From the NCBI GenBank assembly GCA_964344725.1, contig CAYFOI010000003.1, forward strand, positions 1,520 to 65,519: a DNA stretch of 64,000 nt, in the 5' to 3' direction. The notes under the pieces were generated by a model, which did not search any database, was not told the DNA's origin, and was given only the letters and a program-made list of their open reading frames with translations. The position numbers were made by a program, and so were the translations under genes. Below are positions 3,607 through 54,719 of this stretch, in pieces (positions within the stretch are counted from its first letter, which is position 1; each line of letters starts with the position of its first letter). The stretch comes from an uncultured Candidatus Peribacteria bacterium. GTDB lineage: Bacteria > Patescibacteriota > Gracilibacteria > UBA1369 > UBA12470.

Positions 3607-3616
3607 GACTCCGTAG

Positions 3617-7480: not shown

Positions 7481-7588
7481 TCTTTGCGGGTTATTTTTTG
7501 TTTTTTATTATTTTATATATATTTAAGTTTGTTCATTATATAATTATACCTTATTTACAGGAGTGATGAAAGTTTTTTTTTGCAGCAA

Positions 7589-7617
7589 TTTACACGTACG
7601 TACTTTTGTGCTAGAAT
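7589..7617 (+). promoter_or_regulatory. Sigma70-like promoter upstream of folK (TTTACA-17-TAGAAT with a TG extension)
   Basis: TTTACA at 7589-7594, a 17-nt spacer ending in TGC, and TAGAAT at 7612-7617. It lies 29 nt upstream of the folK ATG. Confidence 0.5.
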
Positions 7618-7645
7618 TCGAGTCTCAAATGATTAGTACAAAATT

Positions 7646-8134
7646 ATGGCGATATCCTTCTTGTCATTAGGTTCAAACATGGGGGATAGATGCGTTAACC
7701 TTGCGAGTGCGTATGATATTTTGGAAAATCTTGGTGTAAAAGTTTTACAAAAAAGCAGCGTATATGAATCTGATCCTTGGGGTTATGAGGAGCAGGCTAG
7801 TTTTCTTAATCAGGTTATTAAGGTTGAGACGGAGTTAAGTCCGGAGTCTTTGGTCCAGATATGCAAGGAGGCAGAAAAGCAAATTGGGCGTGTTGATAGC
7901 TTTAAATGGGGACCTCGTGTCTTGGATGTTGATGTGATTTTTTATGGGGATGAAGTTGTCGAGAAACCTGAATGTACGATCCCTCATCATCTTATGCATA
8001 ATAGGCTTTTTGTTTTGATCCCTCTGAATGAAATTGCTGGTGATTTTGTTCATCCTGTGTTTCGGAAAAATGTTTCTGAGTTGCTTAAAGCTTGTGAGGA
8101 TAAACATGGTGTTACGAAAGTCCCCTCTGTATAA
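7646..8134 (+). CDS. folK: 2-amino-4-hydroxy-6-hydroxymethyldihydropteridine pyrophosphokinase (HPPK)
   Basis: Carries the HPPK motifs LGSNMGDR, SSVYESDPWG, QASFLNQV, GPRVLDVDVIFYG and IPHHLMHNRLFVLIPLNEI. Confidence 0.85.
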   Translation: MAISFLSLGSNMGDRCVNLASAYDILENLGVKVLQKSSVYESDPWGYEEQASFLNQVIKVETELSPESLVQICKEAEKQIGRVDSFKWGPRVLDVDVIFYGDEVVEKPECTIPHHLMHNRLFVLIPLNEIAGDFVHPVFRKNVSELLKACEDKHGVTKVPSV

Positions 8135-8191
8135 AGGCTTTGTTGCTGGCTTGATCTAGGGTATATTGGCGTTTGCTAAACGTTTTATTTT

Positions 8192-9013
8192 ATGGATTTT
8201 TCGGCTCTAGAAAAAAAAGCGGCACAACTTCGTATCGATGCTTTGACAGCGATTCACAAGGCTAATTCTGGTCATACAGGAGGTTCAATGTCTTGTATGG
8301 ATATTTTGGTGGCGCTTTATTATGGGGGTGTTCTTAAGTTTGATCCAAATATGCCACAGCTTCCTGAGCGAGATTATTTTGTTCTTTCGAAAGGTCATGC
8401 GGCTCCGGCGTTGTATGCTGTTTTGGCTGATCTTGGGTTTTTTGATAAGTCTGAGCTTGATCATTTGAGACAGGCGGGAGCGCTTCTCCAGGGACATCCA
8501 GTTGTGAAAATCCCAGGGGTGGAGGCGACTACTGGATCTTTGGGACAGGGGATTTCTGCTGCTGTTGGTCTCGCGCTTGCTATTAAGGCGGATCGTGAGG
8601 ATCGAGATGTTTTTGTTTTGTTGGGTGATGGTGAATTGCAGGAAGGTCAGGTTTGGGAGGCTGTGATGTCTGCGGCACATTATCGTTTGGATAATCTGGT
8701 GGCGATTGTTGATCGAAATAAGTTGCAAATTGATGGGCCGTGTAGTGGAGTGATGAATGTTGAACCAATTGCAGATAAATTCGAGTCTTTTGGATGGAAA
8801 GTTATTCCACTCGTTTCTGGGCATAATATTGAAGAGATTGTTTTGGCTTTAAATAAGGCGAAAAATATAGCTCGGCAGCCTACTGTAATTGTGGCTCCGA
8901 CGGTCAAAGGCAAGGGGGTGCCTTTTGCAGAGAACAAGGCTTCGTATCATGGAGTGCCTCTTTCTGAGGCGGAGATGGAGGAGGTTGTACCTTTGTTAGA
9001 GAGTAAACTGTAA
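8192..9013 (+). CDS. tkt: Transketolase, N-terminal (TPP-binding) subunit of a split enzyme
   Basis: Motifs ANSGHTGGSMSCMDILVALYY, LSKGHAAPALYA and GSLGQGISAAVG...LGDGELQEG; 273 aa, followed directly by the C-terminal subunit gene. Confidence 0.9.
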   Translation: MDFSALEKKAAQLRIDALTAIHKANSGHTGGSMSCMDILVALYYGGVLKFDPNMPQLPERDYFVLSKGHAAPALYAVLADLGFFDKSELDHLRQAGALLQGHPVVKIPGVEATTGSLGQGISAAVGLALAIKADREDRDVFVLLGDGELQEGQVWEAVMSAAHYRLDNLVAIVDRNKLQIDGPCSGVMNVEPIADKFESFGWKVIPLVSGHNIEEIVLALNKAKNIARQPTVIVAPTVKGKGVPFAENKASYHGVPLSEAEMEEVVPLLESKL

Positions 9014-9089
9014 ACTGTAGAGAGCATCCGTGGAGCGCTCCGCGCGAATTATTGCTTGCTGACTACTGACTAAATCCTACTGACTAAAC

Positions 9090-10010
9090 ATGGAAAAAAT
9101 TGCTACAAGAGCGGCGTTTGGAGAAGCACTAGCAGAGCTAGGTGCGAAGTATCGTAATATTATGGTGCTTGATGCTGATTTGGCTTGTAGTACTAAGACT
9201 CTCAAGTTTGCTCAGGCGTTTTCTGAAAGGCATTTCAATATGGGGATTGCTGAGCAGAATATGGTTGGGGTAGCTGCGGGGATGGCGCTTAAAGGTAAGA
9301 TTCCTTTTGCTTGTACTTTTGCAGTTTTTGCTGCGGGGCGTGCATGGGAGCAGATTCGAAATAGCGTTGCTTATCCTAATTTGAATGTGAAAATTATTGG
9401 TTCGCATGGCGGGATTATGACCGGGGAAGATGGGGCGACTCATCAGGCTTTGGAGGATCTTTCTGCGATGCGTGTTATACCGAATATGAAGGTTTATTGT
9501 CCGGCTGATTATTGGGAAACCAAGTCTGTTATGGCGAGTATGTGTGAGGATTTTGGGCCTGTATACTTAAGGCTTTCAAGGAGCGGTGTGCCGGTTATTT
9601 ATGACGAAAATTATCGTTTTGAGCCGGGGAAGGGAAGTGTTGTTCGCGAAGGATCGGATATTACGATTTTCGCTGTCGGGTCCATGGTGACGCAAGCTCT
9701 TGAAGCTGCGGAGAGGCTTGAGGCTGATGGTGTTAGTGCGCGGGTTTGCAATATGTGTAGTATTAAGCCGATTGATAAGGATCTTATCCTTGAATCTGCT
9801 CGAAAGACTAAGAAGCTGTTCTCTGTGGAAGATCATCAAATTAATGGTGGGCTTGGAGGTGCGGTTGCGGAGGTGCTTGCTGAGGTCGGCGTAGGGGTTT
9901 CTTTGAAGAGAATTGGTATGGAGAGGTTCGGAGAGAGTGGAAAAGGAGCGGATTTATATAAGAAGTATGGGCTTGATGGGGATGGGATCGTTAACGCGAT
10001 TTCAAGGTAG
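9090..10010 (+). CDS. tkt: Transketolase, C-terminal (pyrimidine-binding) subunit
   Basis: Motifs MGIAEQNMVGVAAGMAL, FAVFAAGRAWEQIRNS and IIGSHGGIMTGEDGATHQALEDL; 306 aa. Confidence 0.9.
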   Translation: MEKIATRAAFGEALAELGAKYRNIMVLDADLACSTKTLKFAQAFSERHFNMGIAEQNMVGVAAGMALKGKIPFACTFAVFAAGRAWEQIRNSVAYPNLNVKIIGSHGGIMTGEDGATHQALEDLSAMRVIPNMKVYCPADYWETKSVMASMCEDFGPVYLRLSRSGVPVIYDENYRFEPGKGSVVREGSDITIFAVGSMVTQALEAAERLEADGVSARVCNMCSIKPIDKDLILESARKTKKLFSVEDHQINGGLGGAVAEVLAEVGVGVSLKRIGMERFGESGKGADLYKKYGLDGDGIVNAISR

Positions 10011-10082
10011 TCGCGTTTTAATCAAGTAAAACTTGCAAATGTGTTTTAGGTGTGATACAAGCTTGTCTTATTTTTAATTTAT

Positions 10083-11114
10083 GTGTTTATGGTGAGAAGG
10101 TATGATGATCCAGATGCTAGAGGTGAAGGTGCTCAAATATTAGAGTTACAACAACCTCTTAGAGAAAGACGAACTTCAAGACCTTTATCATCTTTCTCGG
10201 AAGAGCGTTTGCGTACTCGTGTTAGGGCGATTGGTGCTGCTGTTAGTACTGATCCTTACGAGGCACATCCTTATTACATGTTGTATGAGGCAACTGGGGC
10301 TGCTCCGTCGGAAGATTCTTCCAGGTATGATGGGCCCGTGGGTCATTTTTACAGTCTTGATTTTACAGAACCTAGAGGGAAAGCGCAGAGGTTTGGAGGT
10401 AAAAGTGTTAGTCGATTAGAGCCTTTTATGGCTAGCCATTTGGGTGATTTACTAGGGGAAGATAGGTTGGTGTGGCTTAGGGCACAAGCTAGAGCTGGTT
10501 CTGAAGCCAACCTTCGCGAGGAAGTGATTATGGATGACGAGTTGAATCCTCTTGTCGTAGCATGTGTTGGGGAAGAGGTTTTCTGTTGGATGAGGGGGTC
10601 GGTTCAATTTGGGCTCGATTTTGGGAGGGATGTGCGTGGTTGGCGGGAGAGCATGAAAAGTTATCCAGTATTAGATAGTTGGGTGGAAAGGTTGATGAGC
10701 GAAGATGAAACCAGGTTGTTTAGAGAGAGAAGTGGTTATCAAGAAGATACTTTCCCGTGCAGAATGGTTCCAGGCGTAGCGGCTGCTGCAAATGATTTGC
10801 AACTCAGTAATAATGTAGGTTGGAGACTTTGGGCGGCTATTATGAAAAAAGTTGTTATGAAGGACAGAGCTGTTATAGATCATGTTACCAATGCGCCAAA
10901 GTGGAGGGGTGCTCAGCAGAGTGTTGTGTATGGGGTCCTTGATGATTATCCTCAGCTAGTTGGGGTTTTTGTTTCTCCGGTTGAAGTTCTTGGGTCGTCT
11001 AGGCGGATTGTTCACTCAAATCCTGAGGCGGTTGAAGCTATTGCTGAAAGAGAGGTTGGTAGAAGAGGTATAACTCCGCAATTGAATTACAACCTGATTC
11101 CGCAGGCCGCTTAA
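10083..11114 (+). CDS. Hypothetical cytoplasmic protein (343 aa; Arg/Trp-rich orphan)
   Basis: A long ORF (GTG start; alternative ATG at 10089) occupying an otherwise empty interval. No motif I recognise, and no signal peptide or TM segment. Confidence 0.55.
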   Translation: MFMVRRYDDPDARGEGAQILELQQPLRERRTSRPLSSFSEERLRTRVRAIGAAVSTDPYEAHPYYMLYEATGAAPSEDSSRYDGPVGHFYSLDFTEPRGKAQRFGGKSVSRLEPFMASHLGDLLGEDRLVWLRAQARAGSEANLREEVIMDDELNPLVVACVGEEVFCWMRGSVQFGLDFGRDVRGWRESMKSYPVLDSWVERLMSEDETRLFRERSGYQEDTFPCRMVPGVAAAANDLQLSNNVGWRLWAAIMKKVVMKDRAVIDHVTNAPKWRGAQQSVVYGVLDDYPQLVGVFVSPVEVLGSSRRIVHSNPEAVEAIAEREVGRRGITPQLNYNLIPQAA

Positions 11115-11211
11115 GGCCGATTATGCAATCAAAGTGATTTTTTAGCCTTAGGAATTTGTTGTCGTTTAATGTGTTCTTGTGTTATCAAGTTGTCCTATTA
11201 ACAGAGGGGAT

Positions 11212-12147
11212 ATGAAGAAAATACTTGTGGCATTTCTGGTCTTTCTGTTTGTGCCTGTTGCATATGGTTTTTCCGATGTTAACGAGGATAGTGAACATTA
11301 TGATGCTATTACTTTTCTGGAAGAGAGGGGAATTGTAAGTGGATATCCGGATGGGAGTTTTGGGGTAGATGATGAGGTCAATCGCGTGGAGGCTCTTTAT
11401 ATGATTCTGCAAAGTAGTGTTTCTTATCGTACGGCTAGTATTGAATTTCCTTATGCTGATTTTTGGGATATCGATACGGATGCTTGGTATTATGATAGTT
11501 TGGCGGAAGCTGTTTCTTATGGGATTGCTGCTGGCAATCCGGATGGGAGTTTTGACCCTGGCAGGTTTGTTAACAAAGTTGAGTTTTTGAAAATGCTTCT
11601 TCTTGCTTTTGAAATAGATGTGTCTGCGCATGAAGGGGATGAGTGGTATAGTGGATATTTAGGATATGCTAGAACTGTTGGGCTTGTTTATCCGAATATG
11701 GAGAATGACTTGGAGCCTTCAGTGTATTTGACTCGTGGGGATTGCGCGGAGATTCTTTATAAGATGATTGTGATTGATGAGGGTGGGGATTTGCAGAAGT
11801 TGCTTTCGATGGTTGAGGCTTATTTGGTGCAGGTGCTTGTTGATTTAAATTTGGATGATATTAATAGTGCATTAGAAGATTCTGCTAATGCTGTGTTCTA
11901 TTCTGAAATGGCTTTGGATATTGATTCTGATGAGGGCTTGGTCAATGCTGTAAATAAAATTGCTCTTGGTTTTCAGGAGCTTTGTTTAGCTTATCAGGCT
12001 GGTCTTGATGGGGATCCGGATTCTGCTGCGGAGCATGTTGAAAATGCGAAGCAATATGCTACGGATGCGTATTATGATGATACATCGACTCAGTCTTTGG
12101 GTGCTCAAATCAAAGAGTTTGGGGATGAGTTACTGGACAATTTGTAG
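11212..12147 (+). CDS. Secreted S-layer-homology (SLH) domain protein
   Basis: I moved the start to the ATG at 11212, which gives a signal peptide (MKKILVAFLVFLFVPVAYG) and is preceded by a GAGGGG Shine-Dalgarno sequence. Two SLH repeats are present (FSDVNEDSEHYDAITFLEERGIVSGYPDGSFGVDDEVNRVEAL; FWDIDTDAWYYDSLAEAVSYGIAAGNPDGSFDPGRFVNKVEFL). Confidence 0.8.
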   Translation: MKKILVAFLVFLFVPVAYGFSDVNEDSEHYDAITFLEERGIVSGYPDGSFGVDDEVNRVEALYMILQSSVSYRTASIEFPYADFWDIDTDAWYYDSLAEAVSYGIAAGNPDGSFDPGRFVNKVEFLKMLLLAFEIDVSAHEGDEWYSGYLGYARTVGLVYPNMENDLEPSVYLTRGDCAEILYKMIVIDEGGDLQKLLSMVEAYLVQVLVDLNLDDINSALEDSANAVFYSEMALDIDSDEGLVNAVNKIALGFQELCLAYQAGLDGDPDSAAEHVENAKQYATDAYYDDTSTQSLGAQIKEFGDELLDNL

Positions 12148-12268
12148 AGATCGTTGCCTAGTCTTGTTTTGGTTTGGTGTTTTACGTCGGTATTGGGGAA
12201 TAGTCAATTCTTGCTGGTGGAACAGGATGTTTTTTTAAGGTATAATCTTTGGATTTAAAAAAATAAAA

Positions 12269-15200
12269 ATGAAAAGATTTATCTTCGTTATATTGGGACT
12301 TATCTTTGTCAGTACTCAAGCGTTGGCATTAAGCAGTAGTGATGATTATACGATCGAGACTAAGATGCGGGCTAGTAGCAGTGATTTTATAGTTTTGCAG
12401 ACTGATGATGATCAAGATTACTCTGATACTGATGAGACTATTGATACAACAACAACTACAACAACTACTATCTATGGTGGGGGAGCTGCATCTTCTGTCG
12501 AATCGGACGACGTTGATTATGATGAGGTTTTTGCGACGACGGATAGCACTCCTATTGTCTCTGATATTTTGGAGCCATCGCAAACATATACGGTTTCAAT
12601 TTCTAATGAGTATGGCGAAGAGATTGAATCTTATCAGTTTGAGACAGATGTTAGTGGTCAGTTTATTTATGAGCTTATTACAAAGCTTGAAGATGGTGTT
12701 TATACGGCTTTGGTTTTGGATGCGAATGATAATCGTATTAAGGAATATCAGTTTGATATAAGTACGGATGTTATTGAACCTTCGTTGGAAGTTATGGCTT
12801 TTGGCGAAAAAGAGATTGTTACTTTAGATTTTGATGGGGTGATGGATTTGGGGAGAATCCTGATGGAAGAAGATTCTAAGTTGTATGGATATGCTGTTCC
12901 TTTTGCAGAAGTGATAGTTTATTTCCACAGTGATATCTGGGTTGAGGAAACTGTTGCTGATGAATTTGGTTATTTCGAAGTTCCTATACCTGGTCATCTT
13001 GGTGAAGGGGCTCATACAGCTTATATAACTCAAATTTATCCTGATTCGACAATATCTGAGGATCTTACTTATACTTTTGAACTGGTGGTTCCATCTGAGG
13101 GAAATGTTGAACTGTGGGCTGTTGTTGGATCGATTTTGTTTCTGGTGTTTTTGATGTTGTTTGCTAGAGGCGGTATGAAGAGGTGGTTTGCTAGGTTTGC
13201 TGTGATTGTTTTGTTGGTTTCGGTAGTGCAAGTTGGGCATCCTTTTGCTGATAGTGTGCCGGAGTTTATTGTCTATGATGGGCGGCTTCTTTCTAGTTCG
13301 GGAGAGGTTGTTAGTTCGGAGTATGATTTTAGGTTCTCGTTTTGGTCGGATGCTGATTTTGATGGAGATGTGATTGAAGATGCGGCTTGGTATGAAGAGC
13401 AGACCGTGACTCTTGATAGTGATGGTGGATTCTCTGTACATATTGGAGAGGTTACCCCTTTGCCTGTTTTTGACTCTGAAGTCTACAAGTTTTTACAAGT
13501 AGAAATAAAGGCTCATGGCCAGGCTGATACCGAATATCAATTAATGGATCCGACTGGCGACAATGGTGCCGATGAAATTGATCGTGAGGCTCTGGGGTTA
13601 ACATATTATGCTTATCAATCTCATAGTGCTGAAGGTAGTTTGCAAGATGTTTTTGTAATAGATATTGATGATACTGCGACGTCAGAAATTGGTCTTCAGT
13701 TTGGTTCTGCGATTGAGAAGATACTGTCTTACGATATTGAGAAGCAGTATTTTAATTTTAATGATGATGTGAATATCGAAGGCGATCTTACTATTAGTGG
13801 GCTTGTGGATGGCTACGATATTTCTGGTTATAGTGGGTATGCTACTTTGGCTGACTCCGAGAGTTTGATTGTCGATCATGCGTCTAGAGAGAGTTATGAC
13901 TATCAAGTGACAGCGCTTCTGAGTGTTAACAATACGGGTCTTACCGATGAAAGCTTGGATTTTTCTGATGAAAGTTTGTATGAGGTTGAAGATTCGGAAG
14001 TGGGTACAGATTTTATTTATGGTGGTGTGAGGCTACATAATTCTGGAGGTTCTTTGCAGAGTTATGAGTATGATGTTTCTAGTTATGATGAGGAAAAGAT
14101 TGATTTTGAAGGTGGGGTTGCGAGCTTAAAGAAAGTTTCGGTCGGGGATGATTTTAGTAATGGTAGTCATGATGGTATTGCGATTTCTGGTGATAGTTCG
14201 TTGGTTCTCTCGGGTGCTACTGAGGGTGCTTTTGTTTCTGAAATTTTTGATTTTGGAGAAAGTGTTTCTTTTGAGGAGTTTTCTTATGAAGTTAATTATG
14301 AAACGTTTGATGTTGGGGATGATCCGTATGAGTTTTCGGGGGATTCTTATGAAGATGTGGCCGGTGTTAGTGGGCCTATGAGTGTTGAATTTTGGTTTAA
14401 AACTGAAGAGGCTGGAGGTCTTTTTGATGGAGTTTATGTTGGGCAAGATGGAAAAATCCATTATGAGGGATATGCAACATCTTCTGAGGTTGTTGATGGG
14501 GAGTGGCATCATTTGGTTGTGTCTGACGATATTTATTTGGATGGTGTTTCGCAGAGTTTTGATATTTCGAATGTTGGCGATGGTAGTAACTTGGAATTGG
14601 GGTATGCCGAAGTGCCCGTAGGCGAGGCTTTATCAGTTTCTAATGTCTCTGATGATTGGCAGGCAGTCTCTTTGGATAATTCGTATGCTAATCCTGTGAT
14701 TGTTTGTACTTATAATTTGCCAAGTTTGTCTTCCAACCCTGCTGTTACTAGAATTAATAATATTGGTACTTCGAGTTTTGATTTAAAATTACAAAGTCCT
14801 AGTGGATCTTCTGTTACTTCTGGTGACGTGTATTGTGTTGTCATTGATGAAGGGGATTGGACGCTTACTAATGGTGTTTCTCTTGAGGCTTTTGCTTATC
14901 AGTCTACGAGTCTTGATTATTCTTCTAATTGGGTTGGTGAAGAGATTGATTTAGTAAAGTCGTATACAACTCCTGTGATTTTTGGACAGGTTATGAGTTA
15001 TAACGACGAGCGTTGGTCTGTTTTCTGGGACAGGGGTTCTTCTTCTCGCGGTGTTGTACCATCTGCTGGTGATGTTTATATTGGTATGCATATTGGTCAG
15101 GATCCTGATATTTCGAGAGATAGCGAAATACTTGGATATATAGTTGTGGAAGAGGGGATGGGTACGGTTAATGGCATCGATTACGAGGTTTATTATGGGG

Positions 15201-16513
15201 CTGACTCTGTTGGAGGTATGAGCACTGCTGTTCCTTTTCAATATAGTGTTAGTGGGGATTATGATATGGGTATTTTGACTCAAGCAGCTATGGATGGAAG
15301 CGATGGTGGTTGGGCTGTTTTTTATGGCGAAGATCCAATTCGCGATGCTGAAATAGATTTAGCTATTGATGAGGATAAGGTTGGTGATTCTGAGAGATAC
15401 CATACTACTGAGCAAGCTGCTTATTGGTTATTTAGTGAGGAAGGAACTCTCACTGTTGATGGTTATTTTGTTGGGTCTATTGATGACGTGGTGGTTCATG
15501 ATGGTTATTTGACTCAAGAAGAGGTTCTTAATGATTATCTGGGTGGAGTTTTGGATGCTACGGTGATGTCTAGGACTTGTTATATTTCCGATTGTTCGGA
15601 TCAAAGCTTTGGAGAGTTTAGTCCGGGGACAGAAGGTCAATACTTTCAGTATCAAGTTGTTATGGGTACGGATGATATTTCTTATTCCCCTGAGATTAGT
15701 GATATTTATATTGGGACTGATGTTTATTATGATGATAGTCCGGCTGCCATGGGTGGGGGTGATGAATTTACAGTTCTTGTGAGTTTTGGTGACGAATCTA
15801 CGGGTGATATTCGTTATCAGGTATCTAATGATGGGATGAATTATTACTATTGGGATGGCTCTGCTTGGGTTTATGCTAGTGCTTCTTCGCAGTCAAATAC
15901 GGCTGCGGATATTAATGCTAATGCTGCTTCGTTTGAAGGTGGCGAATTTTATTGGAAAGCTTTCTTTGTCTCTGATGGGTCTGCCGAGGCTTCGCTTGAT
16001 TCTGTGAGCGTTGAGCTTTCAACAGCTTCTTATCCTGTGGGGGAAAGCTATTATGTTGTTACGACTGCTGAAAGTCAGCTCACTGGTGTTTGGGGTGAGG
16101 TGCATGGTGTTACTGTTGAAGATGCCGTGCCAGATGGTACAGTACTTAAATATTTGGTGTCTTTTGATGGCCGCTCAAGTTGGTATTATTGGGATGGGGA
16201 TGCTTGGGTTTTGGCTGGTAGTGATTTGGATGCCGAGGGCGTCTTTACTAATGCGAATAATAGCAGTGAGCTTGAGGCTGTTTCTGATTGGAGTTTGGTT
16301 GATGGTGTTTTGGATTTTTCTGCTGTTTTTTGGAGTAGTGAGATTGGTTATACTTCTTCTTTGGATCAAATTACGCTTAATTACGATGAGCCGGAGATTT
16401 GGCGTGTGATTGATGGAGATAGTCAATATCCGATAGATTTTATTAGCGATACTCAAACTAGGATTACTAATAATTCTGGCCAGACTCAGACGGTCAGGTT
16501 GTATATTAGGTAG
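12269..16513 (+). CDS. Giant envelope protein (1414 aa) with a LamG/concanavalin-like module; possibly two fused or nested cistrons
   Basis: Signal peptide MKRFIFVILGLIFVSTQALA and a poly-Thr tract. An internal TM anchor (LWAVVGSILFLVFLMLFARGG) is immediately followed by a second signal-peptide-like segment that begins at the in-frame ATG at 13175 (MKRWFARFAVIVLLVSVVQVGHPFA). There is a LamG-like stretch (SVEFWFKTEEAGGLFDG...VVDGEWHHLVVSDDIYLDGVS). Confidence 0.8.
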   Translation: MKRFIFVILGLIFVSTQALALSSSDDYTIETKMRASSSDFIVLQTDDDQDYSDTDETIDTTTTTTTTIYGGGAASSVESDDVDYDEVFATTDSTPIVSDILEPSQTYTVSISNEYGEEIESYQFETDVSGQFIYELITKLEDGVYTALVLDANDNRIKEYQFDISTDVIEPSLEVMAFGEKEIVTLDFDGVMDLGRILMEEDSKLYGYAVPFAEVIVYFHSDIWVEETVADEFGYFEVPIPGHLGEGAHTAYITQIYPDSTISEDLTYTFELVVPSEGNVELWAVVGSILFLVFLMLFARGGMKRWFARFAVIVLLVSVVQVGHPFADSVPEFIVYDGRLLSSSGEVVSSEYDFRFSFWSDADFDGDVIEDAAWYEEQTVTLDSDGGFSVHIGEVTPLPVFDSEVYKFLQVEIKAHGQADTEYQLMDPTGDNGADEIDREALGLTYYAYQSHSAEGSLQDVFVIDIDDTATSEIGLQFGSAIEKILSYDIEKQYFNFNDDVNIEGDLTISGLVDGYDISGYSGYATLADSESLIVDHASRESYDYQVTALLSVNNTGLTDESLDFSDESLYEVEDSEVGTDFIYGGVRLHNSGGSLQSYEYDVSSYDEEKIDFEGGVASLKKVSVGDDFSNGSHDGIAISGDSSLVLSGATEGAFVSEIFDFGESVSFEEFSYEVNYETFDVGDDPYEFSGDSYEDVAGVSGPMSVEFWFKTEEAGGLFDGVYVGQDGKIHYEGYATSSEVVDGEWHHLVVSDDIYLDGVSQSFDISNVGDGSNLELGYAEVPVGEALSVSNVSDDWQAVSLDNSYANPVIVCTYNLPSLSSNPAVTRINNIGTSSFDLKLQSPSGSSVTSGDVYCVVIDEGDWTLTNGVSLEAFAYQSTSLDYSSNWVGEEIDLVKSYTTPVIFGQVMSYNDERWSVFWDRGSSSRGVVPSAGDVYIGMHIGQDPDISRDSEILGYIVVEEGMGTVNGIDYEVYYGADSVGGMSTAVPFQYSVSGDYDMGILTQAAMDGSDGGWAVFYGEDPIRDAEIDLAIDEDKVGDSERYHTTEQAAYWLFSEEGTLTVDGYFVGSIDDVVVHDGYLTQEEVLNDYLGGVLDATVMSRTCYISDCSDQSFGEFSPGTEGQYFQYQVVMGTDDISYSPEISDIYIGTDVYYDDSPAAMGGGDEFTVLVSFGDESTGDIRYQVSNDGMNYYYWDGSAWVYASASSQSNTAADINANAASFEGGEFYWKAFFVSDGSAEASLDSVSVELSTASYPVGESYYVVTTAESQLTGVWGEVHGVTVEDAVPDGTVLKYLVSFDGRSSWYYWDGDAWVLAGSDLDAEGVFTNANNSSELEAVSDWSLVDGVLDFSAVFWSSEIGYTSSLDQITLNYDEPEIWRVIDGDSQYPIDFISDTQTRITNNSGQTQTVRLYIR

Positions 16514-16861
16514 TTTAATTATCCGAATTGTCTTCTTTCTGATTCCATGATTCCTAGGACTATTGTCATAGCTAGCTGTATTGCATTATCGGGGGGTATG
16601 CCATCTTGTTCGAATGCTAATCTTATTCTTATTACGTCTGAGTCAAATGCCATCATACGTTGAGCTGGATCTTCAATTGGGTTATTCAATCTTTCGCGTG
16701 TAGCTACGGCTCCTTATGGAGTTTCTAATCCTCTCAGCCAGGATTCGAATTCTGCAGAATCTTCTAATTGAGCACCTTTTCTTAGTGGCATCGTTTTTTT
16801 TCTGGCTAAATCTTACAGTTTGAGTTACATTTGAGGCTCGGAGGATTAAACTACCATAAAT

Positions 16862-17797
16862 ATGGCATCAAACATAAGAATTTTCGCTGGAACGTCTCAT
16901 CCTGAGCTGGCGAAAGCTATTTGTAAAAAACTTGGGACAAAGCTTTCTGAGCTAGAGACTTCCAGGTTTGCTTGTGGAGAAATCTATGCAAAGCCTGCAT
17001 CCACTGTACGGGGTGATGATGTGTTCATTATTCAGACAGCAACATCGAATGTTAACGAAGAGCTTATGGAGCTCTTTATTATTATCGATGCGATGAAGAG
17101 GTCTTTTGCGAAAAATGTTCATGTTGTGATCCCACATTTTCCTTATGCGCGTCAGGATCGTGTTGCGTCTCCGCGCGAGCCGATTTCTGCGAAGGTTGTT
17201 GCGAATTTGATTGGTGCGGCTGGGGCTGATCACGTGATGGTTGTTCAGATTCACTCTGAACAACAGCAAGGTTTCTTTCCTTTCCCAATTGATCATTTGA
17301 ATGCGAGGAAGCTTTTTGCGAAATATTTTAAGAAGAAAAAAATCAAAGATCTTGTTGTAGTAGCTCCAGATGCTGGGGCTGCGAAAGATGCTGATCGTTT
17401 AGCGCGGCACTTGGATACAACGATAGCGGTAATGAGTAAGGTTCGGCCTGAGCATAACAAGGCGGAGATTACGTCTCTTGTCGGTGATGTTGAAGGGAAG
17501 AACTGCATCATTTTTGATGATATGATCGATACGGCGGGAAGTATTTGTGCGGCGCATGATTATTTAAAGAAGCATGGGGCGAAAGATGTTTATGTCGCAG
17601 CGACTCATGCGATTTTCTCAGGTCCGGCTGTGGAAAGGCTGAATAAAACTGGCTTCAAAGGAGTGCTTGTAACAGATACGATTCCTGTGAAGGATAAGGT
17701 GAAAGGGCTTGAGGTTATTTCGGTAGCTCCTATGCTTGCGGCGGTGATTAAGAATGTTCATGAGGGGAAGAGTGTGACGTCGGTGTATAGAGGTTAG
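16862..17797 (+). CDS. prs: Ribose-phosphate pyrophosphokinase (PRPP synthetase)
   Basis: Motifs IFAGTSHPELAKAIC, FPYARQDR, VVAPDAGAAK and IIFDDMIDTAGS. Confidence 0.92.
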   Translation: MASNIRIFAGTSHPELAKAICKKLGTKLSELETSRFACGEIYAKPASTVRGDDVFIIQTATSNVNEELMELFIIIDAMKRSFAKNVHVVIPHFPYARQDRVASPREPISAKVVANLIGAAGADHVMVVQIHSEQQQGFFPFPIDHLNARKLFAKYFKKKKIKDLVVVAPDAGAAKDADRLARHLDTTIAVMSKVRPEHNKAEITSLVGDVEGKNCIIFDDMIDTAGSICAAHDYLKKHGAKDVYVAATHAIFSGPAVERLNKTGFKGVLVTDTIPVKDKVKGLEVISVAPMLAAVIKNVHEGKSVTSVYRG

Positions 17798-17863
17798 CTA
17801 TTTAGCTTTTTAGCTAGTTAGCTATTTAGGAACTAATAACTAATAGTTAATAACTTGAATGAC

Positions 17864-17989
17864 ATGCACGTTTATATTGGTTCAGATCACGGTGGTTGCG
17901 GTTTGACGGAGATATCTCTCGCTGGGTTCTCGCTTCGCTGTGAAGTCGCTCGTGATATCTGTCAAACCTTTAATATTTTATTTAAATAA
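17864..17989 (+). pseudogene. Diverged fragment of the rpiB 5' end (41-codon decoy ORF)
   Basis: ATGCACGTTTATATTGGTTCAGATCACGGTGGTT aligns with the rpiB start ATGAGAGTCTATATTGGTTCAGATCACGGTGGTT; 25 nt are identical (17873-17897 vs 18010-18034). The encoded peptide is MHVYIGSDHGGCGLTEI...EVARDICQTF, compared with RpiB MRVYIGSDHGGYKLKEA...DIAREVCEKV. That corresponds to an RpiB N-terminus with an internal deletion. Confidence 0.7.
17900..17968. repeat. Hairpin element, family 2, copy 1 (variable stem, conserved loop ends)
   Basis: The arms GGTTTGAC(GG)AGATATC and GATATCTGTCAAACC form 15 bp with a 2-nt bulge. The 37-nt loop starts TCTCGCTGGG and ends AAGTCGCTCGT. The other copies are at 46315-46383 and 51939-52033. 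Confidence 0.7.
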
Positions 17990-18000
17990 TTGTTTTATTC

Positions 18001-18438
18001 ATGAGAGTCTATATTGGTTCAGATCACGGTGGTTATAAATTGAAAGAAGCTCTGAAGGAAATGCTTGAGGTCCAGGGTACCGAGTTTACGGATTTGGGAT
18101 GTTTTAATGAGGAGAGTTGTGACTATCCGGATATTGCTAGAGAGGTTTGTGAGAAAGTTGCTGCTGATCCTGCGTCGCGGGGTGTTTTGGTTTGTGGGAC
18201 TGGGCTTGGAATGTCGATGGCGGCTAACAAATATCCTGGGATTCGTGCTGCTATGTGTACGACTGAATATATGGCGCAAATGGCGCGGGAGCACAATGAT
18301 GCTCAGGTGATTTGCATGGGTGGTCGTGTAATTGATGTTGAGATTGGGAAGAAAATGCTTGCGATGTTTTTGAAAACAGATTTTTCAGGGGAGGAGAGAC
18401 ATAAGAGAAGGATAGATGGGGTGATGAATATAGTATGA
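18001..18438 (+). CDS. rpiB: Ribose-5-phosphate isomerase B
   Basis: Motifs IGSDHGGYKLKE, CGTGLGMSMAANK and NDAQVICMGGRV; 145 aa. Confidence 0.9.
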   Translation: MRVYIGSDHGGYKLKEALKEMLEVQGTEFTDLGCFNEESCDYPDIAREVCEKVAADPASRGVLVCGTGLGMSMAANKYPGIRAAMCTTEYMAQMAREHNDAQVICMGGRVIDVEIGKKMLAMFLKTDFSGEERHKRRIDGVMNIV

Positions 18439-18500
18439 TTTTTGGTCGATAGGCTCTTTCACTTACGTACAGTACGTTCTTTCGCCTATCGCCAAAAATC
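18437..18500. repeat. Short palindromic element with GATTTTTG...CAAAAATC termini, immediately after rpiB
   Basis: GATTTTTGG(T)CGATAGGC pairs with GCCTATCGCCAAAAATC (17 bp, 1 bulge) around a 29-nt loop. The element overlaps the rpiB TGA stop. Its termini are the same as the outer arms of the family-1 elements at 19405 and 22048. Confidence 0.65.
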
Positions 18501-18580
18501 TTAATGTTCTTTATTAGCTATTTCTCTATGTGAGAAATTCTATTACTATGGTTGCAGAATTAGTTCATTATCAAGTCACC

Positions 18581-19210
18581 ATGAACGTGAAAATTGCACC
18601 ATCAATATTGTCGGCAGATTTCGGGAGACTCAACGAGGAGATCGCTGATGTTGCTGCTAAGGGGGCAGATTGGGTGCATGTTGATGTGATGGATGGGCAT
18701 TTTGTTCCGAATCTGACTTTTGGGGCGCCGGTTGTTAGGTGCATCAAGACAGATTTGCCTTTGGATGTGCATTTGATGATTGAGAACCCCGAGAAATATG
18801 TTTCGGATTTTGTTGATGCCGGGGCGGACTGGATTACAGTTCACTTCGAGACGTGTGACGATCTTAAAGGGGTGCTTGAAGATATTAAGATTGCTGGAGT
18901 TAAATGCGGTGTTTCTGTGAAGCCTGGGACTGCGATTTCGGAATTAAAACCGTATCTCGGTGATTTGGATCTTATCCTTATTATGAGTGTTGAGCCTGGT
19001 TTTGGAGGGCAGGAATTTATGGAGTCAGCAATTGATAAAATTAAGTGGCTTCGTGAGCAAGGCTTCGAAGGAGAGGTTAGTGTTGATGGTGGAATAAATG
19101 CGGATACGGGGAAGTTGTGCCGCGATGCTGGTGCGAATGTGCTTGTTGCGGGGAGTTATATTTTTGGAGCGGAGGATAGAAGTGAAGCGATAGCTTCGCT
19201 TAGGGAGTAG
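18581..19210 (+). CDS. rpe: Ribulose-phosphate 3-epimerase
   Basis: Motifs IAPSILSADF, HVDVMDGHFVPNLTFG, SVEPGFGGQ and VDGGIN. I trimmed the track ORF (GTG at 18530) to the ATG at 18581, which gives the usual N-terminus MNVKIAPS. Confidence 0.9.
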   Translation: MNVKIAPSILSADFGRLNEEIADVAAKGADWVHVDVMDGHFVPNLTFGAPVVRCIKTDLPLDVHLMIENPEKYVSDFVDAGADWITVHFETCDDLKGVLEDIKIAGVKCGVSVKPGTAISELKPYLGDLDLILIMSVEPGFGGQEFMESAIDKIKWLREQGFEGEVSVDGGINADTGKLCRDAGANVLVAGSYIFGAEDRSEAIASLRE

Positions 19211-19277
19211 AGTTAGGTTTAATTCCGTCCTAGGACAGAATTTCTAGGTTGATTTGGCTAACTGGGGTTGTTCTGTA

Positions 19278-19306
19278 TTGAAAAAAAGCAAGTTTTCCCT
19301 TAAAAT
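19278..19306 (+). promoter_or_regulatory. Sigma70-like promoter for tRNA-Arg (TTGAAA-17-TAAAAT)
   Basis: TTGAAA at 19278-19283, a 17-nt spacer, and TAAAAT at 19301-19306. It lies 22 nt upstream of the tRNA 5' end. Confidence 0.5.
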
Positions 19307-19327
19307 TCGCTCTGCTTTGCACAAAAT

Positions 19328-19403
19328 GCGCCCGTAGTTCAGTGGATAGAACGCCAGATTGCGGATCTGGAAGTCGTAGGTTCAAATCCTGCCGGGCGCG
19401 CCA
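19328..19403 (+). tRNA. tRNA-Arg, anticodon GCG, with encoded CCA
   Basis: Manual cloverleaf: acceptor GCGCCCG/CGGGCGC, D arm GTTC-AGTGGATA-GAAC, anticodon arm CCAGA-TTGCGGA-TCTGG (U33, G34 C35 G36, G37), variable loop AAGTC, T arm GTAGG-TTCAAAT-CCTGC, discriminator G, then CCA. Confidence 0.9.
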
Positions 19404-19404
19404 G

Positions 19405-19517
19405 AGATGTTTGTTATTGTCTCGCTTATGGTTTCCTTTCTGTAATTTGGACTCCAGTTTCACCGAAGCCCAAATTACAGAAGCGTGCAAATATAAGCTC
19501 AACAATAACAAAAATCT
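19405..19517. repeat. Nested-hairpin element, family 1, copy A (immediately 3' of tRNA-Arg)
   Basis: Outer arms AGATGTTTGTTATTGTCTCGC and GCTCAACAATAACAAAAATCT pair at 17 of 21 positions. The conserved internal segments are TTATGGTTTCCTTTCTG and CAGAAGCGTGCAAATAT. The inner stem is CTGTAATTTGG/CCAAATTACAG, and the apical loop is ACTCCAGTTTCACCGAAGC. Confidence 0.75.
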
Positions 19518-19665
19518 TATCTATGGCAGTGTCTCGCATTATCTGGCGAGACGTTTCCAAGCTCGCTCTAAACATTCAAAAAATCTTTTGAAGCACTGCT
19601 GATGTTTTGTCGCAACTTTTTCTCTTTAATGGGTTATTGTATCTCAGTAAATAATATCAAACTTC

Positions 19666-19851
19666 ATGAAGATTCTTAAACCTGTAGCTACGATTGGCTT
19701 GTCGACGATGTTTGCATTGGGGCTTTCGCATGCTTGTCGTTCTGATGATGTTGTTAGCCAGCCTATTCCTGAACAGACTCAGCAGCGTAGTAACTTGCAG
19801 ATGTTTTTGGATTTTTTGGATGAATATAATGATTCGGATTCCGAGCAGTAA
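19666..19851 (+). CDS. Small secreted protein or possible lipoprotein (61 aa)
   Basis: Signal-peptide-like N-terminus MKILKPVATIGLSTMFALGLSHAC followed by an acidic tail. It sits between family-1 copies A and B. Confidence 0.45.
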   Translation: MKILKPVATIGLSTMFALGLSHACRSDDVVSQPIPEQTQQRSNLQMFLDFLDEYNDSDSEQ

Positions 19852-19902
19852 CTTCCAAAATTACTCCTGATGTGGTAAAATTTCCCGGCTAATCTTTTTT
19901 TG

Positions 19903-20004
19903 ATGAAGGACCAGAAATTCAAACTTGTATCAGCTTTTATGAAATATTGCTCAAATGGTTTCCTTTCTGTTATTTGTAGCCCAATTACATCGGATTACAA
20001 ATAA
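19903..20004 (+). pseudogene. Diverged fragment of the uvrB 5' end (33-codon decoy ORF running into element B)
   Basis: 19915-19938 (AAATTCAAACTTGTATCAGCTTTT) matches uvrB 20074-20097 (AAATTCAAACTTGTTTCAGATTTT) at 22 of 24 positions. The decoy encodes MKDQKFKLVSAF..., compared with UvrB MSKFKLVSDF. The decoy ATG is in frame with the uvrB ATG, 165 nt upstream. Confidence 0.65.
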
Positions 20005-20043
20005 CAGAAGCGTGCAAATATTTTCGCAATATTCCTAAAATCT
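19932..20043. repeat. Nested-hairpin element, family 1, copy B (25 nt upstream of the uvrB ATG)
   Basis: The outer arms are AGCTTTTATGAAATATTGC and GCAATATTCCTAAAATCT. The conserved internal segments are TCAAATGGTTTCCTTTCTG and CAGAAGCGTGCAAATATTTTC. The inner stem is CTGTTATTTGTA/TACAAATAACAG, and the loop is GCCCAATTACATCGGAT. Confidence 0.75.
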
Positions 20044-20067
20044 TTATGGATTAATAATTGTTAGCTT

Positions 20068-22047
20068 ATGTCTAAATTCAAACTTGTTTCAGATTTTCAA
20101 CCAATGGGAGACCAGCCGACTGCGATTGCACAGCTCGTCAAAGGTCTTGAGGCGAATAAGAGGTTTCAGACGCTTCTTGGTGCGACGGGGACGGGTAAGA
20201 CTTATGTGATGGCGCAGATTGTTGAGCAGCTGCAGCGGCCTACTATTGTTTTGGCGCATAATAAGACGCTGGCGGCGCAGCTTTTTTCGGAGTTTAAGAG
20301 TTTTTTTCCGGATAACGCGATTTCGTATTTTGTATCTTATTATGATTATTATCAGCCGGAAGCTTATATTGCGCATACGGATACCTATATCGAGAAAGAT
20401 GCGCAGATTAATGAGGAGATTGAGAAGTATCGGCATAAGGCAACGATGAATCTTTTGACGAGGCCGGATACGCTTATTGTTTCTTCGGTTTCTTGTATTT
20501 ATGGTCTTGGGAATCCGGGTGATTATGAGGATCTTAAGATTACTTTAAAAGTAGGGGAGACTCGGCAGAGAGACAAGTTGCTTCGTCATTTGACGGATTT
20601 GCAGTATACGAGGTCGAATATTGAGTTTAAGAACGGGATGTTTCATGTGCTTGGGGATGTCGTGGAGATTTTTCCTCCAGGTATGGATAGCGTTTATCGT
20701 ATTGATTTCTTTGGAGATGAAATTGAAGCGATTCAAGAGGTTGAGCACTTCACTGGAGAGCTTATTGAGGAGCTCTCTGAGGTTACGATTTTCCCGGCCA
20801 AGCATGATGTGACTACTGAAGAGAAGATTAAGCATGCTGTTGAATTAATTCGTCCTGATCTTGAAGCTCGTGTAAAGCAGCTTACTGATATTGGGAAGGG
20901 TCTTGAGGCGCAGAGGCTTCGGACGAGAACGGAGTATGATATTGAGATTTTGCTGGAAACTGGTTATTGCACAGGTATTGAAAACTATGTTCGTTATCTT
21001 AATTTGCGTGAGCCGGGTGAGCAGCCTGCTACACTTTTGGACTACTTCCCGGATGATTTTCTTATGATTATTGACGAGTCGCATATGACTGTGCCGCAGA
21101 TTGGCGCGATGCATAATGGGAATCTTTCACGCAAGAAAAATCTTGTTGAGCATGGGTTCCGTTTGCCTTCGGCTTATGACAATCGTCCGCTTAAGTTTGA
21201 GGAGTTTGAGGATCATGTTAAGAGGTGTGTTTTTGTTTCTGCTACTCCTGGGAAATATGAAATGGCACATACTAAAAAAGCGGATATCGCGGAGCAAATT
21301 ATTCGTCCGACAGGGCTGCTTGATCCGCAGGTTGAGGTTCGCTCCTCAGAAGGGCAGATGAAAGATTTGCGTAAGGAGATTGATAAAGTGCTTGAGCGCA
21401 ATGAGAGGGTTTTGGTGACGACTTTGACTAAGAAAATGGCTGAGGCTCTGACGAAATTCTTGGCTGAGCAAGGACTGAGCGTGAGGTATTTGCATTCGGA
21501 TATTGATACGATGGAGCGTATTGAGATTTTGCGTGATTTACGGCTTGGAAGGTTCGATATTTTGGTTGGAATTAACCTTCTGCGCGAGGGGCTTGATCTG
21601 CCAGAGGTGTCCTTGATTGGAATTCTGGATGCGGATAAGCAAGGGTTCTTAAGGTCTGAGAGTGCACTTATTCAAACCATTGGTCGTGCGGCTCGTAATG
21701 TGAATGGGAAGGTGATTATGTATGCTGACAATATGACTCCTGCTATGGAGGCGGCGATAGGAGAGACTGAGCGTCGTCGTGCTAAACAAGAGGCTTATAA
21801 CAAGGAGCATGGTATTACGCCGCAGACGATTATTAAGAAGATTCACGATATGGAAGAGATGAAGAAAGAGGAAGCTAAGAAGCAAGTTAAGCATTACGAT
21901 GGCAAGAAAGTTCCTCGTGAGGAACGCGAGCGTCTCATTGAAGGTATGGAGGCCGAGATGGATATCGCAGCTCAAAATATGGAGTTTGAAAAAGCTGCTG
22001 AGATTCGAGATGAGATTGAGAGGCTGCAATCTGAGTGGAATATGTAG
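20068..22047 (+). CDS. uvrB: Excinuclease ABC subunit B
   Basis: Motifs GDQPTAI, LLGATGTGKT, DESHMTVPQ, GINLLREGLDLPEV and QTIGRAARN, plus the C-terminal UVR motif (FEKAAEIRDEI). Confidence 0.95.
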   Translation: MSKFKLVSDFQPMGDQPTAIAQLVKGLEANKRFQTLLGATGTGKTYVMAQIVEQLQRPTIVLAHNKTLAAQLFSEFKSFFPDNAISYFVSYYDYYQPEAYIAHTDTYIEKDAQINEEIEKYRHKATMNLLTRPDTLIVSSVSCIYGLGNPGDYEDLKITLKVGETRQRDKLLRHLTDLQYTRSNIEFKNGMFHVLGDVVEIFPPGMDSVYRIDFFGDEIEAIQEVEHFTGELIEELSEVTIFPAKHDVTTEEKIKHAVELIRPDLEARVKQLTDIGKGLEAQRLRTRTEYDIEILLETGYCTGIENYVRYLNLREPGEQPATLLDYFPDDFLMIIDESHMTVPQIGAMHNGNLSRKKNLVEHGFRLPSAYDNRPLKFEEFEDHVKRCVFVSATPGKYEMAHTKKADIAEQIIRPTGLLDPQVEVRSSEGQMKDLRKEIDKVLERNERVLVTTLTKKMAEALTKFLAEQGLSVRYLHSDIDTMERIEILRDLRLGRFDILVGINLLREGLDLPEVSLIGILDADKQGFLRSESALIQTIGRAARNVNGKVIMYADNMTPAMEAAIGETERRRAKQEAYNKEHGITPQTIIKKIHDMEEMKKEEAKKQVKHYDGKKVPREERERLIEGMEAEMDIAAQNMEFEKAAEIRDEIERLQSEWNM

Positions 22048-22158
22048 GATTTTTGTTTATCTTGCTCAAATGGTTTCGTTTCTGTTATTACGAACCCAAT
22101 TTCATCGAGCTCGTAATAACAGAAGCCTGCAAATATTTTCGCAAGACAAACAAAAATC
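22048..22158. repeat. Nested-hairpin element, family 1, copy C (starts 1 nt after the uvrB stop)
   Basis: Outer arms GATTTTTGTTTATCTTGC and GCAAGACAAACAAAAATC pair at 17 of 18 positions. The conserved segments are TCAAATGGTTTCGTTTCTG and CAGAAGCCTGCAAATATTTTC. The inner stem is CTGTTATTACGA/TCGTAATAACAG, and the loop is ACCCAATTTCATCGAGC. Confidence 0.75.
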
Positions 22159-22245
22159 TAATGAGGGTGCTGCTGATGCTCTCTCGACAATAACAAAAAT
22201 CTTTTGAGGAGTGGTTTGTTTTGGTGGCATTTGTTGTTGATATAA

Positions 22246-28398: not shown

Positions 28399-28436
28399 AA
28401 TTTTTTAGAGTTTTAGAATTCTAGAATTCTAGATCT

Positions 28437-46286: not shown

Positions 46287-46316
46287 ATGAAAAAGTTACT
46301 TCTCAGAAATGGTTAG
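46287..46316 (+). pseudogene. Diverged copy of the first 9 codons of pyrC (decoy mini-ORF MKKLLLRNG-stop)
   Basis: ATGAAAAAGTTACTTCTCAGAAATGGT aligns with pyrC ATGACAAAACTACTCCTAAGAAACGGT. There are 6 differences and 5 are synonymous. A TAG follows immediately. The copy is in frame with pyrC, 132 nt upstream. Confidence 0.65.
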
Positions 46317-54694: not shown

Positions 54695-54719
54695 GTTGTG
54701 TCAACTAAGGTTGTCGATT

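Follow-up and report, generated by a model that had tools for sequence, protein, structure and literature searches.

Nested palindromic hairpins around uvrB in a Candidatus Peribacteria genome differ between close relatives at orthologous sites

When nested hairpins of about 110 nt surround a single gene and their stems change in step, has an RNA structure been selected, or has DNA been copied and rearranged? The question is raised by a 64-kb stretch of DNA from an uncultured Candidatus Peribacteria bacterium (hereafter the window; assembly GCA_964344725.1, contig CAYFOI010000003.1, positions 1,520 to 65,519 of the forward strand), in which three such elements, termed Family 1 (copies A, B and C), lie around uvrB. 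A preliminary description, made from the letters alone, had preferred the first answer, i.e. a structured RNA with compensatory evolution. Our analysis shows that the hairpin complementarity is actively kept while the stem sequence changes, and that copies are created, lost and exchanged through DNA-level events. Family-1 elements show no conservation between orthologous sites, where strains whose UvrB is 99 % identical differ in the core or have none. With a confidence somewhat better than even, we regard Family 1 as one type of core within a superfamily of nested palindromic DNA repeats, non-coding and not described before, that belongs to a clade of Peregrinibacteria, bacteria of the candidate phyla radiation (CPR), and turns over by DNA rearrangement.

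A repeat search of the window recovered A, B and C as one direct-repeat family (68-72 % identity; 19406-19520, 19933-20047 and 22048-22162). Together with a segment search and folding, this confirmed the three hairpins where they had been placed before, i.e. on the + strand at 19405..19517 (A), 19932..20043 (B) and 22047/8..22158/9 (C). Their placement by tRNA-Arg and uvrB held as well: A starts 1 nt past the CCA end of tRNA-Arg(GCG) (19328..19403, +), whose 3' end forms its left boundary, B lies within the uvrB leader, and C starts at the base right after the uvrB stop codon TAG, with uvrB itself (20068..22047, +; 659 aa) between B and C. Each copy consists of an outer inverted repeat of 24-25 nt (84-88 % complementary) and an inner one of 21 nt with a 3-nt spacer. 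Within the window, the conserved segments ATGGTTTCCTTTCTGT and ACAGAAGCGTGCAAATAT are confined to these copies (chance expectation for the second, 0.05), and a covariance model of A-C, run with filters off, found no fourth copy in the 64 kb. A candidate at 53792 was rejected, being coding sequence in which the hairpin is absent. All three copies fall inside 2.7 kb and the other 61 kb are without a Family-1 copy, a clustering that is consistent with local copying.

Each of the three folds into a single long hairpin; against shuffles, the + strand gives z-scores between -5.1 and -8.7 and the - strand between -6.1 and -10.5. The internal segments, previously described as conserved loops, are indeed conserved but mostly paired, forming a helix rich in A-U whose 3' arm bears three conserved one-base bulges; this bulged asymmetric module sets the polarity of the element. 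Likewise, the apical segment CCCAATTNCATCG, taken for a loop, is unpaired on the + strand only, while on the - strand G-U pairs close it, which gives a stem of 21 bp and a loop of 3 nt. The Family-1 consensus reads AAAYGGYTTCSYTTYCT, a variable stem-loop and AGAAGCSCTGCARATRTTT.

Related loci (numbered with an L) were reached via UvrB and TrmB homologues, the UvrB relatives being annotated as Peregrinibacteria or Patescibacteria; the DNA sampled amounts to about 191 kb from a few genomes, and copy numbers refer to that sample. Five further homologues were found in related Peregrinibacteria genomes. Copies outside the window include D in a 'Candidatus Peribacteria' metagenome-assembled genome (MAG; L002, 89.5 bits), the diverged member E (L007:527-641), F at the uvrB stop of L012 (L012:2465-2579), H 3' of tRNA-Arg (L007:6148-6245) and the diverged, Family-1-like copy I (L024:1369-1466), besides a partial copy at the uvrB stop of L011 and a core with the right arm only (L004:10731-10845). 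Family-1-type cores thus occur in each related genome sampled, with about 10 copies at about seven independent sites in the 191 kb. When the two conserved segments were used as exact patterns, a genome collection yielded a single true further copy (D) and one chance match in a Lachnospiraceae MAG; the metagenome collection returned the same chance match only and the viral collection nothing. That exact patterns find so little implies a family that is rare or too diverged for them. In the near-identical strain L010, from another sample, A, B and C are unchanged. Between the window genome and the L002/L013 genome, the asymmetric module (GGTTTCSTTTCTG / CAGAAGCSTGCAAAT) is near-identical while the adjoining stems differ, and all Family-1 copies have one orientation, the same as the adjacent + gene.

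The stem covariation reported earlier is real: 13 of 47 pairs are compensated among A-C, and the signal is strong in an alignment of eight members (A, B, C and the five homologues from relatives). There, 86.3 % of cells are paired, a value that none of 500 column shuffles attained (64.5 +/- 1.9 %), and sliding the partner by one to three columns brings pairing down to 43-54 %. Both-sided change is seen in 25 of the 32 pairs, and among the changed cells 50 are both-sided and 5 one-sided. The covariation, however, is peculiar in kind. Aligning the left arm with the reverse complement of the right, each element has 38-46 Watson-Crick pairs, one to three G.T pairs (two of them at conserved positions) and none to four A.C pairs. 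Differences between copies are mirrored and partly contiguous, e.g. TTG to ACG on one arm and CAA to CGT on the other between B and C. The + strand is strongly G+T-rich throughout the window, also across minus-strand genes (GC skew 0 to +0.37, AT skew -0.10 to -0.34). A selected RNA on such a strand would be expected to use many G-U pairs, but the complementarity is symmetric like that of a DNA palindrome; with the double-sided changes, and with G.T and A.C about equal in number, a DNA palindrome agrees no worse than an RNA.

Strand stability gives no clearer support to an RNA. The minus-strand fold is the more stable by 12-14 kcal/mol in A and C, the preference is weaker in B, D and E, and F and H have none, so it is not a property of the family. 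An RNA from the minus strand was considered and rejected on this distribution, the better fold on that strand running against the compositional trend; near A the minus strand has a single promoter-like site (9/12 match), and the region has fewer such matches than shuffles. In Rfam, tRNA alone passed the gathering threshold in the window. At E<=1 the elements matched only generic long-hairpin microRNA precursors, i.e. MIR837 with 29 bits (threshold 117) and mir-548 with 24 bits (threshold 90). The structured-RNA reading of the preliminary description is therefore not specifically supported, given the near-pure Watson-Crick changes, the varying strand stability, the lack of an Rfam match and the sites that are not conserved. 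Nor does coding account for the conservation, as had already been argued. A small protein (MVSFLL...) read from the ATG in AAATGG could be suspected from similar ORFs of 27-35 codons in B and C, but the ORF is not conserved across members: A stops after five codons, D, E and F have ACG for ATG, F and I contain in-frame stops, and the translation of E is unrelated. We consider this explanation refuted, with practically no probability left to it.

What, then, is found at the orthologous sites? After tRNA-Arg, where the window has the Family-1 copy A, L007 (UvrB 79 %) has a diverged Family-1 core with similar outer arms and CTCGCT boxes, L005 (UvrB 91 %) has a Family-3 core (CTCGCTAGGGCATCG...CTGCTGAGCCGCTCG) followed by two partial tandem units, and the assembly of L006 is interrupted by Ns exactly there. 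The outer arm of A (AGATGTTTGTTATTGT) and its CTCGCT box are also present at this site in L005 and L007, its core being of Family 1. An 8-nt direct repeat around the core of A (TGTCTCGC) might be a target duplication but was not used as evidence, as it coincides with the CTCGC box of the next array unit. Upstream of uvrB, a hairpin is found in the window only; L005 has a coreless stub, and there is none in L011, L006, L007 and L012. At the uvrB stop, where C lies in the window, Family-1-type hairpins occur in L012 (UvrB 80 %) and L011, a Family-2 core (CTCGCTCCCG...GATCGCTC) in L005, none in L007 and something else in L006. L005 and L011 encode UvrB proteins that are 99 % identical (652/661 residues; 94.9 % at the nucleotide level) between flanks that cannot be aligned, and L004 and L005, 99.9 % identical through uvrB, lose synteny right past the hairpin at its stop.

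At that breakpoint (L004:2264-2275 versus L005:2621-3074), the downstream gene is MurJ in the former and an unannotated 367-aa gene in the latter. Runs of Ns (L006:2251-2350, 4681-4780) and contig ends (L011, L021, L022) fall exactly where hairpin arrays are expected. Hairpin repeats break short-read assemblies and are probably under-represented in MAGs.

The insertion of B can be read from the start of uvrB. Upstream of the gene lies a relic uvrB start (MKDQKFKLVSAF; 19903..19938, +), which reads ATG AAG GAC CAG AAA TTC AAA CTT GTA TCA GCT TTT and matches the N-termini of orthologues (MSKDHKFKLVSDF; MPDDQKFKLVSDF). It is preceded by the ancestral leader ggctaatcttttttt ('ggctaa..ttttttt'), which adjoins uvrB directly in L006. 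A 24-nt duplication with 92 % identity (22/24) has its upstream copy, AAATTCAAACTTGTATCAGCTTTT, at 19915..19938 (+) and its downstream copy at 20074..20097 (+), the latter forming codons 3-10 of the functional uvrB. Between them lie 135 nt of inserted DNA (19939..20073, +) that comprise most of B, a 30-nt tail and the new ATG TCT start of uvrB, and that are absent from L011, L006, L007 and L012. The left arm of B begins with 7 nt (AGCTTTT) that are a remnant of uvrB coding sequence. As the likely uvrB promoter (TGgTAAAAT, ~19872-19885; aligned with TGcTATATT in L005/L011) is upstream of the relic, translation of the latter would give a short upstream ORF that runs on into hairpin B.

Between A and B there is also a 61-aa ORF (19666-19851) with a signal- or lipobox-like N-terminus (MKILKPVATIGLSTMFALGLSHAC...). 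It is a gene call in L010 too, has no Pfam match and is absent between tRNA-Arg and uvrB in L005.

Copy D offers a presence/absence polymorphism. The TrmB-like gene 5' of D was found on 18 contigs; seven informative contigs have an R-N-R arrangement and one (L018) has R alone, where R is a perfect 115-nt repeat made up of a Family-2 hairpin, a linker and D's left arm, and N is 108 nt made up of the Family-1 core, the right arm and CTTAGCGGGGGGAGG. The alleles differ by 223 nt and are otherwise 100.000 % identical across 14.6 kb. Since the empty allele already contains D's left outer arm, this arm is target DNA and the right arm alone came with the core. The R-N-R architecture recurs at B, with coding sequence in the place of R, and is what an insertion with target duplication leaves behind: new DNA, i.e. 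core, right arm and short tail, adjoins an arm-like sequence that was already there, and the duplicated flanking target varies in length (24 nt at B, 115 nt at D), which does not fit a transposase with a fixed stagger. The earlier remark that the elements do not look like a recently copied MITE (miniature inverted-repeat transposable element) is right insofar as the copies are not recent identical ones, but signs of a mobile repeat are present, i.e. the target duplications at B and D and the empty D allele. Similarly, the outer arms do pair as described, but at least partly owing to recombination or insertion and not to compensatory substitution, as D's left arm shows.

Family 1 is not the only such element, and Families 2-4 also occur in the window. 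Superfamily elements are near-perfect nested palindromes of about 100-115 bp that follow one plan: a variable outer arm, often GATTTTTGTnATTGT / ACAATnACAAAAATC, short boxes (CTCGCT / GCTCG), a conserved asymmetric module (GGYTTCSYTTYCT / AGAAGCSCTGCARAT) in which three single bases bulge out, and an apical stem that varies. The arms GATTTTTGTnATTGT...ACAATnACAAAAATC and the boxes are common to Family 1 and Families 2-4, and Family 3 and the E-type Family 1 have in common a 5' module (CTCGCTAKGGCWTCG) and a 3' module (CTGCWGA..GCTCG), which makes the families one superfamily. The arms GATTTTTGT..ACAAAAATC recur in A, C and many elements of Families 2-4, while B, E, F and H differ.

Family 2 has variable outer arms around CTCGCTCCCG ... 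(A)GATCGCTC(G) and an internal GC stem-loop; its boxes read identically 5'-3' on both arms, giving a symmetric internal loop. Its hairpins lie on the + strand of the window at 17900..17968 (CTCGCT..GTCGCTCG boxes), 46315..46383 and 51939..52033, the last with a 13-nt overlap with the stop codon of the upstream gene, and outside the window at L002:3430-3525 and L005:2538-2621. A Family-4 hairpin (GATTTTTGGTCGATAGGCTCTTTCACTTACG...; 18437..18501, +) overlaps the rpiB stop and has the superfamily arm GATTTTTGG..CCAAAAATC; its orthologue (L005:2868-2930) is nested in the apex of a Family-3 element 3' of uvrB. The fragments of Family-1 vocabulary that had been noted 3' of A and C exist, but they are 3' halves of related Family-3 hairpins. 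One is an orphan Family-3-type 3' half (CTGCTGATG..CTCTCGACAATAACAAAAATCTT; 22170..22209, +) in tandem with the 3' half of C; 3' of A, degenerate Family-2/3-like units (GTCTCGC..AAGCTCGCTC..CAAAAAATCTT; CTGCTGATG..; 19530..19615, +) are orthologous to the end of the L005 array.

Other palindromes were seen that do not belong here. The Peribacteria genome of D contains unrelated nested hairpins (L013:1454-1612 and L002:1966-2065), one of them 3' of a minus-strand gene and with a second, 15-bp outer inverted repeat (AGCCAAACAACCATA / TATGGTTGTTTGGCT). In the window, perfect short palindromes, TAGAGTTTTAGAATTCTAGAA(C/T)TCTA, lie in two intergenic gaps of the minus-strand V-ATPase operon (28397-28440 and 31724-31749), and their sequence is unrelated to Families 1-4.

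With respect to genes, the superfamily is placed regularly. Across the window and the loci, 12 of 17 hairpins have their first base between -13 and +4 nt relative to the stop codon, or the CCA end of a tRNA, that lies upstream. At typical junctions, TAG or TGA is followed by TTTTTTG, or TAG by GATTTTTG, the T-run of the left arm coming directly after the stop; the ends of the full palindrome read TAAG...CTTA, and the element itself may supply the stop codon. This speaks for a functional 3'-end RNA hairpin, carried on the transcript of the preceding gene or tRNA and ending or protecting it, i.e. a terminator without a U-tract, a barrier to 3' exonucleases or an RNase III site; its modules would be bound by an RNA-binding protein, and mobility would explain the distribution only. 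The co-orientation of the Family-1 copies with the adjacent + gene, the strong folding z-scores and the Family-1-type hairpins at the uvrB stop of the window, L011 and L012 point in the same direction. Furthermore, canonical terminators are not enriched in the region (6 versus 5.0 expected), so that another 3' signal would be needed.

Against such a role stand the near absence of wobble pairs in a G+U-rich transcript, the better antisense fold of A and C and the lack of an Rfam match. Moreover, B lies within the uvrB leader, 3' of the likely promoter, where a terminator would be harmful, and the same site in close relatives has no hairpin or one with a different core. An intrinsic terminator has a G+C-rich stem with a U-tract directly after it, but none of the terminator-like sites of the + strand falls within A, B or C: an A-run and then TCTTA close the 3' arm, the T-run is on the 5' side, and no U-tract follows the hairpin. 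A consensus scan likewise found neither a promoter nor a terminator within the elements. The orientation, finally, is confounded with the replication strand. The G+T richness also over minus-strand genes marks the + strand as the leading strand; as this holds at all loci and no copy lies beside minus-strand genes only, transcription- and replication-linked orientation are inseparable. Almost every intergenic region of the window, in fact, folds better on the + strand. Taken together, we hold a functional 3'-end RNA to be unlikely, although it deserves consideration.

The strand asymmetry itself (GC skew to +0.37, T over A) runs through minus-strand gene blocks in the window and in all fetched loci; it is replication-linked and exceeds the gene-strand effect. 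Two intergenic regions of about 1 kb each (54695-55683 and 59707-60655), with no long ORFs and no hairpin family, fold far better on the + strand.

One orientation to the leading strand in all copies would also suit a single-stranded DNA (ssDNA) substrate like a repetitive extragenic palindrome (REP) or an attC site, the folded strand being cut and joined during replication by a structure-specific enzyme (HUH Y1/RAYT-like or a tyrosine recombinase) encoded elsewhere. The module would serve such recognition well, with its three one-base bulges on one arm between stems that keep complementarity only, a logic reported for REP and TnpAREP (PMC8266576), and both the strand-asymmetric stability of the window copies and the polymorphism of D agree with it. 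The alternative named in the preliminary description, a site for a structure-specific protein or in ssDNA, stays plausible in view of the near-identity of this module across species whose stems differ. However, HUH, RAYT, integrase and TnpB were found neither in the window nor in the gene tables of the fetched loci, and no transposase, integrase or reverse transcriptase was present among about 40 window proteins scanned. The elements also have no GTAG/CGTC tag and no GTTRRRY core site, are three times as long as a REP and low in copy number, and their long, variable duplications (24 and 115 nt) are unlike the products of these enzymes. We judge an ssDNA substrate of this kind to be quite improbable.

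Housekeeping genes of the window include those for HPPK, transketolase, PRPP synthase, RpiB, Rpe, UvrB, V-type ATPase, pyrimidine biosynthesis, RpoA and S4. A fragment of a DDE_Tnp_ISL3 transposase (L025/L026:1-652) lies about 700 nt from copy I; a relation of its terminal repeats to the hairpins was not established.

Returning to the reading that we favour, the superfamily of DNA repeats, the most economical mechanism would be a switch of template in replication, or an ectopic recombination event, between hairpins that differ but have similar arms, and a classical transposase would not be required. Either process would account for R-N-R junctions of variable length, for arms that are partly target DNA, for core swaps between shared arms, for tandem partial units and local clustering, and for multibase compensatory changes of Watson-Crick type only. 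Hairpins have been documented to arise and to be repaired by template switching, with compensatory changes that span several bases (PMC8794818). The same templating within a hairpin would hold its arms Watson-Crick complementary and so produce the apparent covariation, and copies would build up where genes end, be it that these places tolerate them or that they form a useful 3' hairpin transcribed with the upstream gene. We infer no specific relation of the elements to the function of uvrB or tRNA-Arg.

Several observations weigh against this explanation. The regularity at gene 3' ends and the single orientation would also fit a selected role at the RNA or ssDNA level. The near-invariance of the module between species exceeds what passive recombination alone would leave and suggests protein recognition or another function. 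The polarity of D is ambiguous, since a deletion between the 115-nt repeats gives the same empty allele and is the simpler polarity for this polymorphism, and no donor for the insert tails of B and D was found in the fetched DNA. The readings as a 3'-end RNA and as a protein recognition site are compatible with a repeat family and not mutually exclusive.

It is tempting to go further and to propose a new mobile element specific to the CPR, in which a nested palindrome of about 110 nt copies its core and right arm beside arm-like sequence or into hairpins, with long variable target duplications, and is recognized via the bulged module by a structure-specific protein. The stop codon at the left end and sometimes a start codon in the tail would then make landing on gene ends harmless, and the element might double as the lineage's transcript 3'-end signal where canonical terminators are lacking. 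We offer this proposal only tentatively and think it doubtful.

CPR genomes are small, and at this locus diverse nested palindromic repeats turn over between otherwise identical strains, reshape gene starts such as that of uvrB, mark synteny breakpoints and break metagenome assemblies. No intergenic repeat family for CPR/Patescibacteria was found in the literature, and a full-text search on Peregrinibacteria gave nothing. Should the bulged module be a protein site, or the hairpins a 3'-end signal, they would give a handle on the mobile DNA or transcript biology of an uncultured phylum. For RNA discovery the case is a caution, as very strong covariation statistics can arise from palindrome maintenance at the DNA level together with modular recombination; the ratio of double-sided changes to wobble pairs and a check of orthologous sites tell an RNA from a DNA palindrome.

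How do these elements compare with known systems? The closest analogues are proteobacterial REP, BIME and REPIN sequences, Rickettsia palindromic elements and MITEs such as Correia. REP, BIME and REPIN sequences are likewise intergenic palindromes often just past genes; they form mosaic arrays and keep the hairpin while stems differ (PMC8266576, PMC3116915); in REP recognition by TnpAREP, bulges and a short conserved motif matter (PMC8266576, PMC3116915). In contrast to REPs, which measure 20-40 nt, carry a GTAG/CGTC tag, reach hundreds of copies and have an associated RAYT gene, we find nested hairpins of about 110 nt with long flanking duplications and few copies in the DNA sampled, and saw no RAYT. 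GTAG/CGTC is absent at both ends of these elements of 98-117 nt.

Rickettsia palindromic elements (RPEs), as Ogata et al. are said to have described them in 2000, are palindromic repeats of about 105-146 bp that form several families in a small, reduced genome, with no known transposase. Their insertions can reportedly enter coding sequence without killing the gene, typically in frame, so that they become part of the translated host protein. The likeness, a functional one only and across different phyla, lies in size, in palindromy, in the reduced genome and in entry into a coding region (B in the 5' end of uvrB), whereas B supplied uvrB with a new start codon, leaving a relic behind, and the copies here are mostly intergenic and abut stop codons. 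RPEs are listed among bacterial repeats (PMC3184786).

MITEs such as Correia, ERIC and RUP resemble Family 1 in their length of about 100-150 bp, inverted arms around a core, hairpin transcripts, location near gene ends and presence or absence between strains (PMC3184786). While MITEs have defined terminal inverted repeats matching an insertion sequence and a fixed short target duplication (e.g. TA), the arms here vary by copy, one arm can be target DNA, and the duplications measure 24 nt at B and 115 nt at D, with no short direct repeat at C. IS200/IS605-derived elements are recognized by separate subterminal hairpins at the left and the right, by inserting 3' of a fixed tetra- or pentanucleotide without duplication, and by TnpA/TnpB in the genome; here each element is a single long hairpin, duplications are present and TnpA/TnpB were not seen.

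Similar features in integron attC sites are recognition via structure and not via sequence, extrahelical bases confined to one strand, stems that vary, strand-specific activity and a comparable length (57-141 nt). Unlike them, the present elements have no R''/R' core sites (RYYYAAC/GTTRRRY), integrase or cassette array, their neighbours are syntenic housekeeping genes, and GTTRRRY is missing from the 3' end of every copy (only GTTATTG, GTTTATC and GTTAATT occur). Template-switch mutations explain, through single events, why the arms are perfectly Watson-Crick, why multibase changes are mirrored and why G-U intermediates are lacking (PMC8794818); they have been described as a mutational process in RNA genes and not as repeat propagation, which here we infer from the junctions. 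While a member of none of the systems tested, the Family-1 element works like known palindromic repeat systems.

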